Shown in pieces: positions 3,779 to 41,118 of a DNA stretch of 41,118 nucleotides. Source of the DNA: an uncultured Candidatus Saccharibacteria bacterium (GTDB taxonomy: Bacteria > Patescibacteriota > Minisyncoccia > Phycocordibacterales > GWA1-40-21); the NCBI GenBank assembly GCA_964583845.1, contig CAZOXG010000002.1:1-41118 (forward strand). Direction: 5' to 3'. The translations under genes were made by a program, and so were the position numbers. Every line of letters starts with the position of its first letter. Within the stretch, counting starts at the first letter, position 1. The notes beneath the pieces are model-generated. The model worked only from the letters and a program-made list of their open reading frames with translations, ran no database searches and had not been told where the DNA came from.

Positions 3779-3976
3779 AGTAGGAATTTCTTCCTCGACT
3801 AAAACTTCGTCGTCGGGCCACAAAGGCCACTTCCATTTTCTAACACGGAGTACCGTGAAGAAAATCAGGTCGCTCGGTTTTGTCTGGGCACGCTCTCGCA
3901 TGACTTTCTACTGAAAGTCATTGGCTCCGAGCTTCGAATCCTACTCGCAAGTGATAACATCACTTGCTTGGGTGCA
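3779..3976 (+). mobile_element. mini-element copy C1 (type-2 core variant), behind tRNA-Lys
   Basis: Left arm AGTAGGAATT. The core shares GGTCGCTCGGTTT..TGGGCACGC.TC-hairpin-CTCCGAGCT with copy G2. Right arm is TTCGAATCCTAC, then a 24-nt inserted hairpin, then TGGGTGCA, which is the tRNA-Lys 3' half in inverted orientation. Confidence 0.65.
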
Positions 3977-5121: not shown

Positions 5122-5379
5122 GTGCCCAGGATGGGACTCGGTCAGGAATAATTTTCTTATCGACACAAGAAAATTTTCACGACCATTACATGGTCAGTAC
5201 ACCATTTTGGATATTTTATTTCGTTACACTCATAAAATATCTCACAAGGTCTTTCGGTTGGGTCCCTTACCCAATCCTCAACCTGCCTCGCGGCTGGGCA
5301 TTGCTATACCCAGACCCTCTGCCTAAGAAAAATCGGCAAAGGGTACGCTCCGCTTTTCGAGTTCCACCCTATCGGGCAC
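5122..5379 (+). mobile_element. mini-element copy D1 (composite/nested), outer copy behind tRNA-Leu(UAA)
   Basis: Left arm GTGCCCAGGATGGGACTCG matches the tRNA gene strand at 17/19. Then GTCAGGAATAATTTTCTT-ATCGACAC-AAGAAAATTTTCACGACC. A nested second core-like unit lies at about 5192-5245. Right arm is TTCGAGTTCCACCC-TAT-CGGGCAC. Confidence 0.7.
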
Positions 5380-5395
5380 ATACAAAAAAACAGCT

Positions 5396-5480
5396 TGGTG
5401 GACTCGGTCACAGGTTTTTGCTTGCTAGCAAAACCCGCGACCCCGACTCGGCCCGTCGGCCTCCGTCTTTCGAGTCCCAC
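5396..5480 (+). mobile_element. mini-element copy D2 (short type-1 core), inner copy behind tRNA-Leu(UAA)
   Basis: TGGTGGACTCG|GTCACAGGTTTTTGCTTGCTAGCAAAACCCGCGACCCCGACTCGGCCCGTCGGCCTCCGTCTT|TCGAGTCCCAC. Confidence 0.75.
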
Positions 5481-5618: not shown

Positions 5619-5743
5619 TTGAGGCCTGTGCAGAATGGTCAGGAATATTTTGTTCGCCGGCGCTCACAAAATTTCACGACCCTGGCTCGGCCCGGCTGAT
5701 TGCTATCAGCCGACTTCGTGGCCTCTGCCTTTCGATTCTGCCC
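5619..5743 (+). mobile_element. mini-element copy B (type-1 core), behind tRNA-Cys
   Basis: Left arm TTGAGGCCTGTGCAGAATG versus tRNA gene strand TTGAGGCCTAGGGCAGAATCG. Core is GTCAGGAATATTTTGT-TCGCCGGCGCTC-ACAAAATTTCACGACCCTGGCTCGGCC-CGGCTGAT/ATCAGCCG-..GGCCTCTGCCTT. Right arm TTCGATTCTGCCC. Confidence 0.8.
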
Positions 5744-15082: not shown

Positions 15083-15199
15083 GGAAAGGATTTGGTCATG
15101 GATAATTCACTAGTCGTCTCTCGTGAATTTCCACGACCCTGACTCGGCCACACTACCTGCTGGCAGTGGCTTCGCGGCCTCCGTCTTTCAAATCCTTCC
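15083..15199 (+). mobile_element. mini-element copy E (type-1 core), behind tRNA-Tyr
   Basis: GGAAAGGATTTG|GTCATGGATAATTCAC-TAGTCGTCTCTC-GTGAATTTCCACGACCCTGACTCGGCC-hairpin-GCGGCCTCCGTCTT|TCAAATCCTTCC. Confidence 0.8.
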
Positions 15200-19338: not shown

Positions 19339-19462
19339 ATCAGATTCGGTCACGACTTTTTCTTTCGCCGTCGCTCAAGAAAAGTCTCGACCCTAGCTCA
19401 GCATTACTCGCTGGAGCTCGTAATAAGCTTGCGCTTTTCGAATCTGAGTGGGCCCGCATATT
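19339..19462 (+). mobile_element. mini-element copy F (type-1 core), behind tRNA-Trp
   Basis: CATCAGATTCG|GTCACGACTTTTTCTT-TCGCCGTCGCTC-AAGAAAAGTCTCGACCCTAGCTCAG-hairpin-CTTGCGCTTT|TCGAATCTGAGTGGGCCCGCATATT. The 26-nt right arm is a perfect inverted copy of the tRNA 3' half. Confidence 0.85.
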
Positions 19463-21486: not shown

Positions 21487-21598
21487 TATGAAGTGATTCT
21501 AGCAGATTTGGGGATGGGGTCAAATAATTAAAAGTTTTTTGAGTTTTTCTCCCGAGTAAGAGGTGTTGGAAGAGAGATTGCCCGAAAATATTAAAATA

Positions 21599-21728
21599 TG
21601 CCGAGAGCGAGACCCGGTTACGAATATTTTTCTTGTTGTCACAAGAAAAATTTCTCGACCCCGGCTCGGCCACTCTCTCTGGTGATAGTGGCTTTGCGGC
21701 CTCCGCCTTTCGAGTCTCTCTCCCGGCA
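21599..21728 (+). mobile_element. mini-element copy G1 (type-1 core), outer copy behind tRNA-Leu(CAA)
   Basis: TGCCGAGAGCGAGACCCG|GTTACGAATATTTTTCTTGT-TGTC-ACAAGAAAAATTTCTCGACCCCGGCTCGGCC-CCACT..AGTGG-CTTTGCGGCCTCCGCCTT|TCGAGTCTCTCTCCCGGCA. Confidence 0.85.
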
Positions 21729-21736
21729 AATACAAG

Positions 21737-21858
21737 TGCCGGATAGAGGACTCGCCCGCACCTCTCGTTTCGCCGTCGCTCAACTCGGTTTGGGCACCGC
21801 CTCACATTTTTGACTACTGTCAAAAATAGGTTCCGGCGTTCGAGTCTCTCTCCCGGCA
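21737..21858 (+). mobile_element. mini-element copy G2 (type-2 core), inner copy behind tRNA-Leu(CAA)
   Basis: TGCCGGATAGAGGACTCG|CCCGCACCTCTCGTTTCGCCGTCGCTCAACTCGGTTTGGGCACCGCCTCA-CATTTTTGACTACTGTCAAAAAT-AGGTTCCGGCGT|TCGAGTCTCTCTCCCGGCA. Confidence 0.8.
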
Positions 21859-21898
21859 CAAAAGAAAAACACTGGAATATTCCAGTGTTTTTCTTTTG
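21859..21898. terminator. bidirectional terminator between copy G2 and tRNA-Leu(CAA)
   Basis: CAAAAGAAAAACACTGG-AATATT-CCAGTGTTTTTCTTTTG perfect palindrome. Confidence 0.75.
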
Positions 21899-21981
21899 TG
21901 CCGGGAGAGAGACTCGAACTCTCACAGTGTTGCCACCGGTGGATTTTGAGTCCACTGCGTCTGCCATTCCGCCATCCCGGC
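21899..21981 (-). tRNA. tRNA-Leu (anticodon CAA), type II, no CCA
   Basis: Acceptor GCCGGGA/TCCCGGC, anticodon stem GTGGA/TCCAC, loop CTCAAAA, T arm GAGAG-TTCGAGT-CTCTC. Confidence 0.92.
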
Positions 21982-26291: not shown

Positions 26292-26372
26292 TTGTTGGTC
26301 TCCTTAGAATTGTTTGTCGTGCAGAAGAATTGCCTTCTGCTAATCCAAAAACACTATAACATTTTTTATTAG

Positions 26373-26424
26373 AAATGGCAAATTAAAACCCCACACCAGG
26401 ACTTCCGAAGGGAAGTGAGTTGGT
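26373..26424 (-). repeat. 52-bp direct repeat, copy 1 (terminator hairpin plus -35 box)
   Basis: AAATGGCAAATTAAAACCCCACACCAGGACTTCCGAAGGGAAGTGAGTTGGT. 49/52 identical to 28199-28250. On the minus strand: hairpin ACTTCC-CTTC-GGAAGT, then GGGGTTTTAATTTGCCA. Confidence 0.85.
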
Positions 26425-26446: not shown

Positions 26447-28123
26447 TTATTTTCCTGGAGAAAAAGCCTGATCAAAATCAATTAAATATAACCTAGGAAA
26501 ACGATTAAAATCTGGTTTACCATTTTCATTTCTAAAAAATCTTAGACAAAAGTTGCCATCGTGAGGGTGACCATGTTCAAAATTTATACTACTTAACACC
26601 GCCTTTATTTTATTTTTTTGTTCTTCAAGTTCAGATTCAAATTTAGTTGATATTTCTTTCCACCTAGCCAAACTAAGATCTAAGACTCCACTATACACCC
26701 TAATTGAACCATTCTTATTAATGCTAAATGATTGGATTGGTTCTATTGGAACGTAATCAAAACCAGCCTGCTGCCACAGTTTCCAATTCTCATATATAGA
26801 TTGCCACGATAGAAAAGCTTCTGGTGTAATTTCTCTTATTATCGTTTTGTCTTTTAAGTCACCACCAAGTAAAATAGTTTCTGAACCTGTCTTATCAAAA
26901 TTAGCTCGAGAGAATTTTTCTTTTCTTACTGCTCCATTTTTGTATAATGCTGGTTTAATCAAGTATTCTTCTAAACCTTTTTCCTTCATTAATTTATACA
27001 ACCCTTTCCTTTCATTTTTGGGAATATAGTCAATCATTCCAATTGATGAGGTTTGCACTTTAGGATCAACACTTTCTAAACTCTGTCTAATCCTTAGTAA
27101 AACATTCTTCCACAAGGAAGGCTTTTCCGGCTCAGAGACAAAATTAATGTTATCAACTGATAGTATTTGAATCTCTAGATTTGAATGAGACAAACCTTCC
27201 CTGATAAGACTAGCTCTCTCATTTACAGGAGCAAACCGAATATTTTCAGCCGATATTTTTTGTACTTCTGGGTTAGGGTGATTAAAACCGTCTTTAATAA
27301 GGAGTGTTATTTCATCTTTGGGAGCATCGCCCATCATTAAAGCTGATGTAATTTGAACTTCTGGATTTGAATGAGACAAACCTTCTCTAATAAGTGTTGA
27401 TCTTTCGTCTCCAAATGCTCTTTCAATTATTTTAACTGATTCCACCTGAACTTTTGGGTTAGGGTGTTTTAAACATTCTCTAATAAGATTAGCTATCATA
27501 TTTTCAGGAGCAAACCGAATATTTTCAGCCGATATTTTTTGTACTTCTGGATTAGAGTGATTTAAACCTTCTTCAATAAGCGATAATGTTTTAGTTACTG
27601 GAGCATTGTCCAATAATTTGGCCGATGTAATTTGAACTTCGGAGTCAGTACTATTTAATCCATTTTTGATTTTTTGTAAAACAATTTCTCGCAGAAAACC
27701 CTTTTGAGTTTTAGGTGCAAACCAAATAGTTTCAGACGAAATTATTTGTACTTCTGGGTTGAGATGACTTAGACCTTCTTCAATAAGTGGTGTTATCTCA
27801 TCTTCTGATATAAATTTAATAGCCTCGGCTGCTGCTTTTTGCACCTCAGGGTCAGAATTAGCTAAGCCTTCTTTAATAAGAAAGAATGTTTTTGAGTTAG
27901 GAGTGAATAGACTTTCATTAATTTCATGCACCAAAGGTGAAATTTTCTTCTCTTTATTTTTAGTAATAATTAAATCAATCTTCTCATTATTTCTAATTTT
28001 ATCCTCTTTGTATCTATCAAAACTATGTTCAGTTATCTGATTTTGCCCAGGAATTTCATACATTTTCAAATATTTTGGTAGTGGTGACTCAGGACTTTCA
28101 ATTTTTTGCACAGGTCTTTCCAT
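26447..28123 (-). CDS. HEAT-repeat protein (about 9 repeats of ~31 aa) with a C-terminal protein-kinase-like domain
   Basis: Repeats of EGLxHxNPEVQxxSAxxIxFAP. The C-terminus has HGHPHDGNFCL (catalytic-loop-like) and LYLIDFDQA (DFD). The ATG at 28123 is preferred (MERPVQ). Low G+C. Confidence 0.7.
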   Translation of the reverse strand: MERPVQKIESPESPLPKYLKMYEIPGQNQITEHSFDRYKEDKIRNNEKIDLIITKNKEKKISPLVHEINESLFTPNSKTFFLIKEGLANSDPEVQKAAAEAIKFISEDEITPLIEEGLSHLNPEVQIISSETIWFAPKTQKGFLREIVLQKIKNGLNSTDSEVQITSAKLLDNAPVTKTLSLIEEGLNHSNPEVQKISAENIRFAPENMIANLIRECLKHPNPKVQVESVKIIERAFGDERSTLIREGLSHSNPEVQITSALMMGDAPKDEITLLIKDGFNHPNPEVQKISAENIRFAPVNERASLIREGLSHSNLEIQILSVDNINFVSEPEKPSLWKNVLLRIRQSLESVDPKVQTSSIGMIDYIPKNERKGLYKLMKEKGLEEYLIKPALYKNGAVRKEKFSRANFDKTGSETILLGGDLKDKTIIREITPEAFLSWQSIYENWKLWQQAGFDYVPIEPIQSFSINKNGSIRVYSGVLDLSLARWKEISTKFESELEEQKNKIKAVLSSINFEHGHPHDGNFCLRFFRNENGKPDFNRFPRLYLIDFDQAFSPGK

Positions 28124-28198
28124 AGAAGAAATATAGCATAAAACTATATTAGTTTCGAATTTTGATAAAATATAAAAGTGTATATGGTAAGGCAATAA

Positions 28199-28250
28199 AA
28201 ATGGCAAATTAAAACCCCACACCAGGACTTCCGAGGGGAAGTGAACTGGT
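28199..28250 (-). repeat. 52-bp direct repeat, copy 2
   Basis: See 26373-26424. Lies 17 nt past the stop of 28268..28795 and supplies TTGCCA as the -35 box for the HEAT gene. Confidence 0.85.
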
Positions 28251-30411: not shown

Positions 30412-30495
30412 TTATTTTGTGTCTGCAACCTCAGCCAGTTTATGTGGATTATGATTAGGACAATTCTTATCACTACATCTATCTGGTATGGTCTT
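30412..30495 (-). pseudogene. displaced 3'-terminal fragment of topA (27 codons plus stop)
   Basis: Minus-strand translation is KTIPDRCSDKNCPNHNPHKLAEVADTK*. The first 20 aa are identical to the end of intact TopA, with 12/60 nt different and all differences synonymous. Confidence 0.8.
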
Positions 30496-30497
30496 TG

Positions 30498-30628
30498 GTC
30501 ACAAATATTTTCTCGCCGTCGCTCAAAAATTTTGCCGACCCCGGCTCAGTATTGCTCGTTGCTACTCGCAATATACTTCCGCCTCACAAAAACTAAAAAC
30601 AGACAGCGAAGACTGTCTGTTTCTTACA
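30498..30628 (+). mobile_element. mini-element copy H (type-1 core plus terminator), behind topA
   Basis: GTCACAAATATTTTC-TCGCCGTCGCTC-AAAAATTTTGCCGACCCCGGCTCAG-TATTGC..GCAATA-TACTTCCGCCTCAC, then the AAACAGACAG-6 nt-CTGTCTGTTT hairpin (30597-30622) directly before the topA stop. Confidence 0.85.
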
Positions 30629-32824
30629 TTAGTTTGTTAATTTATGCGGATTATGATTCGGACAATTCTTATCAGAACAGCGATCGGGAATAGTTTTTGT
30701 GCCAACCATCATCAACTCACCACATAACTTACATTTTTCTCCAGTTGGTTTAGTTTTGATTATATATTTGCAATCAGGATAATTTGAACAACTATAGAAA
30801 ATTCCAAATCGTCCACGCTTTTCAGTCATCATACCTTTTTTACACTTTGGACATTCAACACCAGTGGAGTTCAATCTCTCCATTTCTTTATCTTTTTTTA
30901 TAAACTTACATTTCGGATAATTACCACAAGCGATAAACTTACCAAATTTTCCTTCACGTTCAAACAAGTTTGATTTACCACATTGCGGGCAAAGTTCACC
31001 AGTATCTTTTGGTCCCGCAATTTCAATTCCGTCCATTTTAAGTGCTCCTTGACACTCTGGATATTTGGCGCAACTCAAAAACTTGCCAGTGCGTCCAAGC
31101 TTGATCACCATCGGTCCTTTACAAACTGGGCATTTAAATTCGGCACCTGCTTCACCAAGATTAGTAATTTTTTCTACTCCTTCTTTAGCCTTAACATCTG
31201 CTAAGAACGGGCCATAAAAATCCTTCAAAGTTTTGACGTATTGAGCTGTTCCGTTGGCAATATTGTCCAGTTTGTCTTCCATGTCGGCGGTAAAAGTATC
31301 ACTGATATATTTGCCAAAATTATCTTCCAAGAAAGTACTGACAGTCTCACCGGTGTCAGTTGGTTTGAGAGCTCTTTCTATTTTTTCAACATAACCACGA
31401 TCCTGAATCGTCTTAATAATAGAAGCATAAGTAGAAGGACGGCCAATACCTCTTTTTTCTAATTCTTTAATCAAACCCGCTTCAGTATAACGTGGTGGTG
31501 GTTCGGTACTTTTTTCCTGATCTTTAATTTCAATTAGTTTAAGAGTCTCACCAACAGTGATACTTGGTAGTTCTACATCTTCACCACGAGCCTGAGGGTC
31601 GGCGATTAACCAACCGTCAAAGATAACGCGGGACCCATTGGCGGTAAAATCTGGAATCTCACCAGTACCAATTTTTACAATTATTTTACTACGAGCGATT
31701 TTGGCATCAGTCATCTGAGAAGCCACAGTTCTTTGCCAAATCAATTTATAAAGTTTGGCTTGTTCAGGTGTAAAACGAGAACTAGTTTCTAAAGCAAAGT
31801 TAGTTGGACGGATGGCTTCGTGAGCTTCTTGGGCATTTTTACTTTTGGCAGCGAAAGTGCGAGGAGATAAATAATTTTCTCCATAGTTAGTTTTTATAGT
31901 TGCAAAGATTTTTTCTTGAGCTTCTTTGGAAAGGTTGGTACTGTCCGTACGCATATAACTGATGAAACCACCTTCGTAAAGTTTTTGAGCAATACTCATG
32001 GTTCGAGCCGGAGCAAAACCAAGACGGGAAGAAGCAGTTTGTTGCAAGGTGGAAGTGATGAATGGGGCTTTTGGTTGACGTTTAGCTTCGGTTTCATTTA
32101 GATCAGAAATCACCCAGGAATTTGTTTTGCCATAAGCAACAATACGTTTCATTTCTTCTTCGGTTTTTGGTTTTTCTTCACACTCTAAAGGCAAAGGTAA
32201 CTTTTTTGTGGTTTCAGTATCGGCAGTTATCACCCAATATTTTTCAGGAACAAATGCGCGAACTTCACGTTCGCGCTCTACAATAATACGTAGGGCTGGT
32301 GACTGAACACGTCCAGCGGATAGTCCGTAGCGAACTTTTTTCCAAATCAAACCAGAGAGATCGTAACCAACGAGACGATCTAAAACACGGCGAGCTTCTT
32401 GAGCTTGGCGTAAGTTCTCGTCAATTAAGCGTGGGTGAGTCAAAGCTTCTTCGATCGCGGATTTCGTGATTTCATGAAAAGCCACACGTTTTGGATTATG
32501 AAGACCAATAGCCTCCTTCAAATGCCAAGCAATTGCTTCACCTTCACGGTCGGGGTCAGTCGCAAGTAAAACTTCTTCTGCTTCACTAGAGAGTTTTTTT
32601 AATTCCGCGACCACTTTTTCTTTGCCCGGAGAAATTTCGTAAGTGGGAACGAAGCCTGCGGGAATATCAATCGCCTTTTTGTTACTTTTTGGTAAGTCAC
32701 GAATATGACCGATACTTGCCTTTACTATATAACCTTCACCGGCATATTTGGTTATTGTGTTGGCTTTGGCAGGGGACTCCACGATCAATAATTTAAAACT
32801 TTTTGGTGAACTTGTATTACTCAT
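30629..32824 (-). CDS. topA: DNA topoisomerase I with four C-terminal zinc ribbons
   Basis: Toprim start LLIVESPAKA, type IA core, and four CxxC..CxxC modules. The ATG at 32824 is preferred over the TTG at 32833. Confidence 0.93.
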   Translation of the reverse strand: MSNTSSPKSFKLLIVESPAKANTITKYAGEGYIVKASIGHIRDLPKSNKKAIDIPAGFVPTYEISPGKEKVVAELKKLSSEAEEVLLATDPDREGEAIAWHLKEAIGLHNPKRVAFHEITKSAIEEALTHPRLIDENLRQAQEARRVLDRLVGYDLSGLIWKKVRYGLSAGRVQSPALRIIVEREREVRAFVPEKYWVITADTETTKKLPLPLECEEKPKTEEEMKRIVAYGKTNSWVISDLNETEAKRQPKAPFITSTLQQTASSRLGFAPARTMSIAQKLYEGGFISYMRTDSTNLSKEAQEKIFATIKTNYGENYLSPRTFAAKSKNAQEAHEAIRPTNFALETSSRFTPEQAKLYKLIWQRTVASQMTDAKIARSKIIVKIGTGEIPDFTANGSRVIFDGWLIADPQARGEDVELPSITVGETLKLIEIKDQEKSTEPPPRYTEAGLIKELEKRGIGRPSTYASIIKTIQDRGYVEKIERALKPTDTGETVSTFLEDNFGKYISDTFTADMEDKLDNIANGTAQYVKTLKDFYGPFLADVKAKEGVEKITNLGEAGAEFKCPVCKGPMVIKLGRTGKFLSCAKYPECQGALKMDGIEIAGPKDTGELCPQCGKSNLFEREGKFGKFIACGNYPKCKFIKKDKEMERLNSTGVECPKCKKGMMTEKRGRFGIFYSCSNYPDCKYIIKTKPTGEKCKLCGELMMVGTKTIPDRCSDKNCPNHNPHKLTN

Positions 32825-32947
32825 TTCCAACAAGTATTACACGAAAATATCAAAACAGGCAAATTTTTGAAAAGTTTTGGTGAATAATTTTCGCACTTTT
32901 TTTAATAATATTGTATAATGAAACGGAAACTTATTGTTATTAAACTT

Positions 32948-33631: not shown

Positions 33632-34504
33632 TTACTTCAGGTATATTTGTCCTCCGTTCTCAGAAATCAGCCCCTTTATTTCCATTAAAGTTAAAACAGT
33701 ATTTAATTCAGTGATTGTTATATTGGCTTTGATTGCCAAGTCATCACGCTCTAGTGGTTCGGTTAAACATTCAATAATTTTTCTTTCTTCTGGTGAACAA
33801 TCGTCAAGATTTAAAGTTAAGTTGGCGGTTTTGGTTTGTAAGCCTAGAGCCTCTAAAATATCAGCACTTGAAGTTATTGGAGTCGCCCCGAGTTTCAAAA
33901 GTAAATGCGGTCCTTCCGATGTACTAGAAAAAATTGAACCAGGCACAGTAAGAACATCACGATTATAATCAGTGGCCATGCGAGCAGTTATTAAAGTGCC
34001 CGACTTGGCTTCGGCTTCTATGACTAAAATAGCGTGCGAGAGACCGGCCATAATACGATTACGTTGAGGAAACGACCAAGTGGTGGCTTTAAAATTTGGT
34101 TCAAATTCGGAAACAAGGGCTCCTCCTTTTTCAATTACTTTTTCAGCGAGTGATATATTAGTCGAAGGATAAATTGATTTTGGATCAAGACCAGAACCCG
34201 GTACAGCTATAGTCGGTAAACCAGCTTCGATTGCCGCTCGATGAGCTATGGTGTCAATCCCTAAAGCTAGACCCGAAACAATGCAAACCTTACTACCAGC
34301 TAGACCGCTTATTAATTTATGTACTATTTCGGCTCCATAATTGGTATATTTTCTAGAACCAACTACGCAGAGGAACTTGTACCCACTATTTTCTGATGGT
34401 AAATTTCCTGCCAGGTATAATTTTTGTGGTGGTTGAGGAATTTCTAGAAGCCTTTCTGGCCACTCGCTCCTTTCAAATTCACGAATATCAAATTTCATAT
34501 ACAT
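33632..34504 (-). CDS. dprA: DNA-processing protein DprA/Smf
   Basis: GSRKYTNYG..IVSGLALGIDTIAHRAA..AVPGSGLD Rossmann-like DprA core. Start ambiguous (34504, 34498, or TTG at 34516). Confidence 0.88.
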   Translation of the reverse strand: MYMKFDIREFERSEWPERLLEIPQPPQKLYLAGNLPSENSGYKFLCVVGSRKYTNYGAEIVHKLISGLAGSKVCIVSGLALGIDTIAHRAAIEAGLPTIAVPGSGLDPKSIYPSTNISLAEKVIEKGGALVSEFEPNFKATTWSFPQRNRIMAGLSHAILVIEAEAKSGTLITARMATDYNRDVLTVPGSIFSSTSEGPHLLLKLGATPITSSADILEALGLQTKTANLTLNLDDCSPEERKIIECLTEPLERDDLAIKANITITELNTVLTLMEIKGLISENGGQIYLK

Positions 34505-34604
34505 ATATTTTATCAATTAAACATGTTTTTACAAAACTTTTAAGCATTGAATTTTAATTTTGTTGTTATATACTGTCATTATTATAGATTATTAGTAAAA
34601 AACC

Positions 34605-41066: not shown

Positions 41067-41118
41067 TGCCAGATCGTCTAAAGGTAGGACAGTGGCCTTT
41101 GAAGCCATCAATCTTGGT
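41067..41118 (+). tRNA. tRNA-Gln (anticodon UUG), 5' part only, truncated by the window end
   Basis: TGCCAGA acceptor strand, D arm GTCT-AAAGGTA-GGAC, anticodon stem GTGGC/GCCAT, loop CTTTGAA. Confidence 0.7.

Follow-up and report, generated by a model that had tools for sequence, protein, structure and literature searches.

Two subfamilies of a small folded non-coding element stacked behind a tRNA-Leu(CAA) gene of a Candidatus Saccharibacteria bacterium, with relatives at gene 3' ends in Patescibacteria and Elusimicrobia

Introduction

What are the two short units stacked behind the tRNA-Leu(CAA) gene of an uncultured Candidatus Saccharibacteria bacterium, and how did they come to lie there? 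The units, G1 and G2, are found in a stretch of 41,118 nt (39.5% G+C) that was analysed as a whole and is called the window here (GenBank assembly GCA_964583845.1, contig CAZOXG010000002.1, positions 1 to 41,118). It contains seven complete tRNA genes according to ARAGORN and Rfam. An earlier note, made from the sequence alone, had described two different core variants behind this tRNA gene, with modules shuffled between them. G1 and G2 belong to a family whose members share one anatomy, one fold and one folding strand, occur behind a range of target genes, form arrays that turn over, and encode no protein in cis. The preferred interpretation is that a small non-coding element, which would home to the 3' ends of conserved genes, inserted here twice in succession, each time as a member of a different subfamily; this may well be right and may equally be wrong. 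About half of the tRNA genes in the sampled loci, from two phyla, carry such an element, and no description of the family was found in the RNA, mobile-element and literature sources searched.

Anatomy of the stacked units

Both units lie on the minus strand and share the orientation of tRNA-Leu(CAA), with G1 spanning 21599-21728 and G2 spanning 21737-21858. In the sense of the tRNA, the order is TGCCGGGAGAGAGACTCGAA-core-CGAGTCCTCTATCCGGCA (G2), 8 nt, TGCCGGGAGAGAGACTCGAA-core-GGGTCTCGCTCTCGGCA (G1), and finally a remnant, CGGGC|AATCTCTCTTCC. The parts, beginning with the tRNA gene, are as follows.

21899-21981, minus strand: tRNA-Leu(CAA), the target gene (ARAGORN and Rfam tRNA, 57.2 bits)
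21899-21918, minus strand: X_L, the last 20 nt of tRNA-Leu(CAA) (T54-A73), the sequence copied in the arms
21859-21898, no strand: Y, a 40-nt perfect palindrome (A-tract, CACTGGAAT|ATTCCAGTG, T-tract), a terminator-like hairpin separating the tRNA and G2
21839-21858, minus strand: X' arm of G2, TGCCGGGAGAGAGACTCGAA on the minus strand, a 20-nt exact reverse complement of the tRNA 3' end
21753-21841, minus strand: core of G2, type 2, with J12 GAAC, P2 GCC:GGC, a P2b hairpin, P3 base GUGCCC...GCGGGC and cap GAGCGACGGCGA (cmsearch 55.2 bits, E 1e-10, model positions 1-91)
21737-21754, minus strand: X_R of G2, CGAGTCCTCTATCCGGCA, a decayed direct copy of the tRNA 3' end that forms the closing helix P1 with X'; ortholog copies in loci L256 and L258
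21709-21728, minus strand: X' arm of G1, the second exact reverse complement of the tRNA-Leu(CAA) 3' end
21616-21711, minus strand: core of G1, type-1 subfamily T1a, partly decayed (cmsearch 56.1 bits, E 7e-11)
21599-21615, minus strand: X_R of G1, GGGTCTCGCTCTCGGCA, a decayed direct copy of the tRNA tail, 14/17 identical, pairing with X' in the minimum-free-energy fold
21566-21584, minus strand: remnant of an older unit, CGGGC (a type-2-like P3 end) followed by AATCTCTCTTCC (a decayed tRNA tail); similar distal remnants in L258, L260 and L261

X_L, Y and the X' arm of G2 together make up an 82-nt perfect palindrome (21838-21919) with 41-nt arms and a loop of 0 nt, and in the RNA fold of G2 the X' and X_R arms pair as a P1 of ~16 bp. 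The same layout is found behind every complete tRNA gene of the window: an X_L tail, a palindromic, terminator-like Y, an X' arm, a core and, often, a decayed X_R. X' is in each case the reverse complement of the T-loop, the 3' strand of the T-stem and the 3' strand of the acceptor of its own tRNA. Units are ~110-270 nt long and without an open reading frame (ORF).

The sequence quoted in the earlier note was confirmed, together with the stacking of two core variants and the 20-mer TTCGAGTCTCTCTCCCGGCA at the end of both units (plus strand, 21709-21728 and 21839-21858), which is the exact inverted tRNA 3' end. The roles of the arms and the strand had been reversed: the perfect 'right arm' of that description is the tRNA-proximal, guide-like X', its 'left arm' is the displaced tRNA tail, and it is the minus strand that folds. 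A match of both left arms to the tRNA at 15/18 holds for G1, with the register moved by 1 nt, but not for G2, which gives 12/18 ungapped and ~16/19 with one indel pair. The suspected third, decayed copy was also confirmed, though it lies ten bases to the left of the span first proposed (21578-21594), at about 21566-21584, and it resembles the 3' end of a type-2 core followed by a decayed copy of the tRNA tail.

A conserved three-way-junction core

The core pattern GAGYYRGGGTCG-N11-GAGCGNCGGCGA matched at least 120 genome loci (sampled loci are numbered with the prefix L), and 87 pattern-matched cores were aligned with three from the window (n = 90). RNAalifold and explicit pair counting over these 90 cores support a three-way junction of ~90 nt. 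Its closing helix, P1, consists of X' and X_R. J12 is GNRA-like but variable (GAAA, GUGA, GCGA, GGAA), P2 is separated by a 3x2 internal loop with conserved G/A from a hairpin, P2a/P2b, with the loop AGYA, J23 is 1-2 nt long, and P3 is GGUCG...UGACC with the cap GAGCGNCGGCGA. Paired cells amount to 95.8%, against 73.3% in shuffled alignments and 33-46% when the partners were slid, and the covariation score of 0.611 (0.182 in shuffles) was reached by none of 500 shuffles. Compensatory changes occur in 21 of the 29 pairs. A G.U pair at columns 54:90 is invariant in 90/90 cores, a second pair has the composition GC 48, GU 27 and AU 10, and 26 of about 90 core positions are invariant.

The pair table also indicates which strand folds. 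It holds ~150 G.U or U.G cells against ~22 A.C or C.A cells, and the gene-sense strand is therefore the folding strand, whether the molecule is RNA or single-stranded DNA. The greater stability of the sense folds agrees with this: -61.1 kcal/mol for sense and -54.4 for antisense in one comparison, -56.7 and -48.1 in the other. The tandem G.A motifs were considered as a k-turn or box C/D structure, which was rejected on inspection of the alignment since the bulge geometry does not fit.

A covariance model (R1) was built from the 90 cores and run on the window with cmsearch. The window holds 10 copies in 41 kb, behind 7/7 complete tRNA genes and the 3' end of topA, and both G1 and G2 were matched over the full length of the model. 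The other copies, by descending score, are these.

2660-2836 (unit) and 2699-2788 (core), plus strand: copy A, behind tRNA-Leu(TAG), the best-preserved type-1 copy (99.3 bits)
5637-5733, minus strand: core (79.8 bits)
19348-19439, minus strand: core (78.2 bits)
30497-30587, minus strand: type-1 core at the 3' end of topA (72.7 bits)
15094-15189, minus strand: core (69.4 bits)
5406-5471, minus strand: core (46.6 bits)
5140-5203, minus strand: core (31.4 bits)
3851-3935, minus strand: C1, behind tRNA-Lys, type-2 core with a long insertion in P3 and the GUGCCCAGAC motif (24.9 bits, E 7e-4)

The copies of the window are ~70-80% alike among themselves. C1 (3851-4013) and the second tRNA-Leu(TAA) unit (5140-5400) hold extra insertions of about 100-150 nt.

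Two subfamilies of one element

The core of G2 departs from type 1 in three places: P2 is GCC:GGC for GGC:GCC, a compensatory change, J12 has a pyrimidine end, and the P3 base is GUGCCC...GCGGGC. It had been thought a different core that borrows modules from type 1, but it aligns to the type-1 model from end to end (J12, P2, P2b, and P3 with the GAGCGACGGCGA cap). G2 and C1 are both related to the type-1 core, being matched by the model with 55 and 25 bits. The layout that the earlier note saw as common to these two was borne out, as both have the type-2 P3 base, GUGCCCAGAC...AGUCGMGGGM. This signature recurs in L020, L036, L040, L078 (three times) and L200, and in L036 and L040 type 2 and type 1 are again stacked behind a single tRNA, the two subfamilies sharing genomes. 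Judged by these sequence features, type 2 is a genuine subfamily of one element family. A third variant, in L261, has GGCUG...UAGCC, a compensatory change in otherwise invariant pairs. G1 shows signs of decay, with GUAACC for the invariant GUGACC and an altered P3 cap, and its core resembles the tRNA-Tyr copy of the window and the L260 and L256 orthologs. No recombinase linked to either subfamily was found among the neighbouring genes of the sampled loci or the ORFs of the window.

The proposed shuffling of modules was based on a hairpin of G2 (21805-21827), which does match the reverse complement of 2713-2735 in copy A at 22/23. The identity of 0.88 to copy A compares with 0.81 for the best foreign locus. 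The shared hairpin is P2b, a low-complexity sequence of A/T runs, and in the orthologous type-2 copies it differs by 1 nt (L256) or by 4 nt with compensation (L258). As P2b is homologous, low in complexity and already present in these orthologs, an exchange of the hairpin between G2 and copy A is possible but unproven.

Arms and duplicated gene tails

Each unit appears to be matched to the gene in front of it. In the window, X' shares 11-20 exact nt with its own tRNA in 8/9 copies, against 8 nt at most with any other tRNA. Among 85 tRNA-linked cores elsewhere, 26 have an X_R with an exact run of at least 18 nt, whereas no core of a partner-swapped control reached even 12 nt, and exact runs of 8 nt or more occur in the X' of 56 cores against 15 in the control. 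The start of X_R is T-loop position 56/57 or the very end of the tRNA. Some copies include CCA and up to ~10 nt of trailer, and the direct repeats vary in length from about 8 to 59 nt. The truncated X_R of L006, L016 and L105 reflect later decay. CCA is present on X_R and missing from the tRNA gene copy in L008, L062 and L083, the reverse is seen in L116, and among orthologs CCA thus toggles from one copy to the other.

Behind protein genes the duplicated tail is coding sequence. The stop codon of the topA ORF of the window (30629-32833, minus strand; Toprim, Topoisom_bac and three zinc ribbons) is closely followed by a type-1 element, and a 59-nt direct repeat of the last 19 codons flanks the element (30641-30699 and 30439-30497, 83% nucleotide identity, same amino acids). 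At least eight other genomes have the same topA insertion point. In five topA tail pairs the ratios of synonymous to non-synonymous codon differences are 13:1, 8:0, 12:0, 11:2 and 11:5, in sum 55 synonymous against 8 non-synonymous codons, with frame and stop kept. The two tails of L056 are of different lineage types. The element-borne tail is read as coming from a donor at about genus or family distance and set beside the native tail, as these codon patterns suggest. A diversity-generating retroelement was considered for the topA repeat and rejected: the two copies differ by transitions as well as transversions, Ser TCN/AGY switches among them, mostly synonymously and not specifically at adenines, and the scanned ORFs of the window include no reverse transcriptase. 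An origin of X' by self-primed reverse transcription from the terminator hairpin was likewise rejected, as it predicts an antisense core and the core is sense.

Could such paired tails be the two ends of an intron-like or ribozyme element? X' can pair with either X_L or X_R, and the boundaries in front of X_L and at GACC|X_R then fall on one and the same position of the three-way junction. If the RNA were cut at both and the ends rejoined, by self-catalysis or through a host ligase such as RtcB, the gene body would be linked to X_R and [X_L-Y-X'-core] released, perhaps in circular form; the element would move by the reverse reaction or by a DNA copy. Both tails look functional in part of the family, with the mostly synonymous topA pairs retaining their stop and perfect tRNA tails, including CCA, in several Elusimicrobia, and the three loci with CCA on X_R alone point the same way. 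The many invariant core positions recall small ribozymes, and the topology, with an open P1, two hairpins and no nucleotide between P3 and the 3' strand of P1, corresponds to that of a type-I hammerhead. Known small ribozymes located by tRNAs or host RNA genes (type-I hammerheads, and hepatitis delta virus-like ribozymes at R2 and behind phage tRNAs) also have a three-way junction, an open closing helix formed in part from host-gene sequence, a position directly behind tRNAs and many invariant junction nucleotides. An intron-like or ribozyme element is nonetheless quite unlikely. The core has neither the CUGANGA/GAAA core of hammerheads nor a nested pseudoknot, and no ribozyme or intron family of Rfam was hit even with E raised to 5. 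Its junction strands, GNRA-like in J12 and 1-2 nt in J23, and the variability of J12 differ from the hammerhead core. At ~90 nt it is also small beside group I and II introns (>~200 nt). There is no constraint on the nucleotide 5' of X_L, which is C, C, A or G in the different targets, and many X_R are clearly non-functional tRNA halves, G1 having a G at position 58 and G2 a mispaired T stem. The synonymous pattern is equally well explained by a donor at genus or family distance.

Turnover of the array

Orthologous loci were located by way of MiaA homologs (84, 81, 79 and 66% identity) and the synteny tRNA-Leu(CAA)-SMR-MiaA. The units in each array, beginning next to the tRNA, are the following, where T2 stands for type 2.

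Window: T2 (G2), T1a (G1), remnant
L256: T2, T1a (degenerate)
L258: T2, T1b, 3' remnant of T1a, partial unit
L260: T1b with a different Y, T1a, remnant; no T2
L261: third variant, remnants

The intact unit is the tRNA-proximal one and the distal units are decayed; in G1 an invariant pair is broken. With type 2 comes a Y of its own, and L260, which lacks T2, has a different one. Between orthologs, changes in the palindrome are symmetric on both arms, X' is perfect or nearly so, X_R drifts, and the P2b changes between T2 copies are compensatory.

At the finest scale, contigs of the source population differ by just one 25-nt hairpin, GAAGCGAGTGCTGGATAGCACTCGC, which lies inside the X' of G2, exactly between its acceptor and T-stem parts, with ~100% identity over roughly 700 nt otherwise. 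The hairpin is present in L242 and L244, and missing from the window, L243 and L246. This optional hairpin module, of the form A-GC...GCG(T), recurs in many other copies. Loss of GAAGCGAGTGCTGGATAGCACTCGC would leave the window palindrome perfect, as would be expected from template-switch correction of quasi-palindromes.

Arrays of this kind have practical consequences. Five of the six population contigs (L243-L247) start inside the G2/G1 array, its repeats thus fragmenting short-read assemblies, and arrays produce pseudo-tRNA fragments and misleading ORF calls. In L258, a 134-aa ORF called as 'SMR' runs upstream into the array and is a misleading call of this sort. The succession of insertions within arrays could serve as a lineage marker.

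Distribution and targets

The core loci, at least 120, fall in Patescibacteria and Elusimicrobia (~20 in the latter). Carriers among Patescibacteria include Saccharibacteria, Nomura-, Kaiser-, Taylor-, Lloyd-, Zambryski-, Yonath- and Moranii-bacteria, Paceibacterota and Minisyncoccia, and one carrier metagenome-assembled genome (MAG) is labelled Bdellovibrionales. The proteins of the window are closest to Minisyncoccia-type loci, and its MiaA relatives are labelled Minisyncoccia. Among the 121 pattern matches listed, 81 lie 60-290 nt behind a tRNA on the same strand, with 31 anticodons represented. Of 177 evaluable tRNAs in the sampled loci, 98 carry at least one core by nhmmer and 79 do not. 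The remaining targets are tmRNA, topA, rplL and rpsI, each with a duplicated gene tail. In Elusimicrobia the element lies behind the same tRNA-Val in at least six species and behind tRNA-Arg in four. The 3' 25-mer of tRNA-Leu(CAA) was searched for in metagenomes, where it came mostly from unrelated phyla and so served as a negative control; 109/111 of these loci were without a core and 2/111 had one.

The core pattern had 0 matches in 2.9 million viral contigs, and blastn with copy A found none in 50,697 phage records or 72,556 plasmids. Rfam 15 returned only tRNAs at the gathering score and, at E<=5, nothing over the cores; the only matches near cores at that threshold were chance, miRNA-like hits on the tRNA-Trp palindrome. 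A paper on insertions in rRNA genes of the candidate phyla radiation mentions neither tRNAs nor these elements (PMC11270868).

In two Patescibacteria MAGs, ARAGORN reported a tRNA with a UUA anticodon ('tRNA-Stop'; L048 6777-6850, minus strand, and L065 6080-6153, plus strand), each followed by a type-1 element. This may be a suppressor or recoding tRNA, or a mis-call.

Search for proteins and mobility partners

No gene recurs next to the element in 118 loci, where downstream ORFs cluster only as syntenic housekeeping genes. The 30 scanned ORFs of the window, 10 of them without a Pfam match, include no integrase, transposase (Y1 transposases among them), reverse transcriptase or homing endonuclease. 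An autonomous transposon with the same ends was not found in the window or in 120 of the core loci (up to 8 kb each), to which the search was limited. The only candidate for a linked mobility gene was a LAGLIDADG ORF in L200, which was set aside as a one-off. It has two LAGLIDADG-like motifs (ILGLLVTDGNL, LRGHLDGDGNV) and starts ~8 nt after the X_R behind tRNA-Leu(CAA).

The lack of an integrase bears on the possibility that the units are scars of integrase-mediated islands, that is, the attL and attR left when a phage or island in a T-loop site lost its cargo. There are several points of resemblance: direct repeats that run from the T-loop to the tRNA 3' end or beyond, a tmRNA target, and tandem arrays with older, partial copies placed distally, all of which are reportedly typical of tRNA-targeting integrases (Williams 2002). 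Still, this origin is very improbable. The interior of ~90 nt is a conserved, covarying fold found across two phyla and more than 31 target types, no integrase lies among the neighbours of the 118 loci or the window ORFs, the viral, phage and plasmid collections gave no match, and the implied attP/attB left flanks are without a common core-type inverted repeat.

Comparison with known systems

Integrative elements of tRNA and tmRNA genes (T-loop class, and tycheposons) resemble the present units in their insertion at the T-loop or 3' end, the gene tail brought in by the element, the old tail left as a direct repeat, and the newest arrival lying nearest the tRNA. The direct repeats here likewise start in the T-loop, but the units lack an integrase inside the element or any other protein, measure only ~110-270 nt, contain an inverted tail copy and a three-way junction, occur at the 3' ends of protein genes as well, and gave no match in the viral and plasmid collections.

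Miniature inverted-repeat transposable elements (MITEs) and repetitive extragenic palindromes (REP, and the REPINs built from them) are similarly short, non-coding, hairpin-forming, intergenic at gene 3' ends and present in many copies, some of them orthologous. Their inverted repeats are specific to the element and flanked by a fixed short target duplication, whereas those of the present units derive from the target and differ at each locus, with direct repeats of 8-59 nt and no fixed target-site duplication, and no RAYT or transposase was found in the loci and window searched. Long duplications flank every well-preserved unit, which also separates the family from IS200/IS605-derived elements such as palindrome-associated transposable elements (PATEs) and REP/REPIN.

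Integron attC sites and the attP of CTX phage share the use of one folding strand, a two-arm stem that rebuilds a target-like duplex, and occurrence in arrays. In contrast to them, the core sequence here is highly conserved, there are no R/L boxes (GTTRRRY) and no integron, cassette or IntI context, the arms are the tail of the target, and the targets are tRNA and gene 3' ends.

Proposed mechanism and alternatives

If G1 and G2 are successive insertions of a homing element, the inserted unit, in gene sense, would be [X_L - Y - X' - core]. X_L would serve as a replacement gene tail, for tRNAs from T-loop position 57 to the 3' end, and entry at the 5' edge of the tail would keep the gene intact. 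The former tail, X_R, would be moved downstream, where it would pair with X' and close the junction as P1. Each new unit would enter beside the tRNA, giving growth at the proximal end and decay at the distal end, and the X_L/X' inverted repeat would be kept perfect by palindrome-driven template switching. The target would presumably be chosen by pairing of X' with X in the folded sense strand, as RNA or single-stranded DNA. For the insertion itself, the candidates are a trans-acting enzyme that recognises the folded core, reactions at the RNA level, and recombination after DNA uptake. On the DNA-uptake route, the tRNA body and X_R could act as homology arms; DprA is encoded in the window at 33632-34516.

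A bolder proposal, which is tentative and somewhat improbable, is that the family represents a new, protein-less class of self-targeting mobile RNA or single-stranded DNA, with the core as its active part. X' would be a programmable guide, and cutting and joining would take place precisely at the P3/P1 boundary, through the core itself or through a host enzyme that it recruits. Besides being inserted, the unit might also be spliced out or form a circle, with the spare tail keeping the gene working, which would make it a hybrid of intron and transposon distinct from group I/II introns, IS110 bridge-RNA elements and IS200/IS605.

Several observations weigh against insertion by a mobile element. 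Neither an empty orthologous site nor an excised form was seen, and three other loci are invariant in the source population. The window contains no near-identical copies, which indicates that there was no recent burst, and no enzyme candidate is known. The perfect arm is X' in the window, where X_R is decayed, and the reverse in L007 and L023, so that a single simple insertion chemistry fails to explain both. In Elusimicrobia the helices are kept by compensatory change, and X' and X_R track species-specific changes of the tRNA; orthologous type-2 cores also keep their pairing while the sequence shifts. Such compensatory upkeep at orthologous sites looks like selection in place, which is unexpected for a purely selfish relic. 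The long-term conservation of orthologous copies with compensatory change, in Elusimicrobia and in the T2 orthologs, thus leaves room for a function in place or at the level of the host.

The alternative that follows from this is a host-functional RNA module of gene 3' ends, which would be transcribed together with the upstream gene or directly after it and maintained by selection. It might be a signal for processing, termination or stability, or an acceptor/T-arm mimic for RNase P, RNase Z or the CCA-adding enzyme, its arrays arising by local duplication. Besides the compensatory evolution of orthologous copies in Elusimicrobia and relatives of the window, the strict co-orientation with the upstream gene and the folding of the sense strand favour such a module, as does the presence of an element at every complete tRNA gene of the window. 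The P1 behind tRNAs corresponds to a 7-bp acceptor and a 5-bp T stem, the optional hairpin sits at the D/anticodon branch point, and X_R can end in ACCA. In this mirroring of the acceptor and T stems of the neighbouring tRNA, with its discriminator and with or without CCA, P1 recalls known tRNA-like domains (the tmRNA domain and the Y RNA YrlA), from which the units differ in that the core replaces the T-loop, the protein-gene copies have no tRNA-like helix, and Rfam gave no match. The same core behind topA, rplL and rpsI, where P1 is not tRNA-like, speaks against such a module. The host module as a whole is judged unlikely, given also the 79/177 tRNAs without an element, the different subfamilies in the same tRNA-proximal slot of relatives, the decay of older units, the foreign-type tail of L056, and the terminator-like hairpin that in Patescibacteria usually lies between gene and core.

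Successive insertion of a homing element remains the preferred interpretation of G1 and G2. Arm-guided insertion without a protein of its own, if true, would give selfish DNA or RNA a new and harmless route into essential genes, and might offer a compact programmable targeting module. If the units are instead host RNA, they would be an unrecognised part of the 3'-end biology of tRNA and mRNA in Patescibacteria.

Other features of the window

At the right end of the window (41067-41118, plus strand) lies the beginning of a further tRNA gene, which is truncated there (Rfam tRNA, 27.6 bits, model positions 1-52). A gene for a HEAT-repeat protein (ORF 26447-28222, minus strand) contains ~six tandem 93-nt repeats at 27134-27804, which are 61-84% identical. 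This gene is bracketed by a 55-nt direct repeat (26370-26424 and 28196-28250, 93% identical) with the GC-rich hairpin CCCCACACCAGGACTTCCGAAGGGAAGTGAGTTGGT, which is unrelated to the tRNA-linked family.

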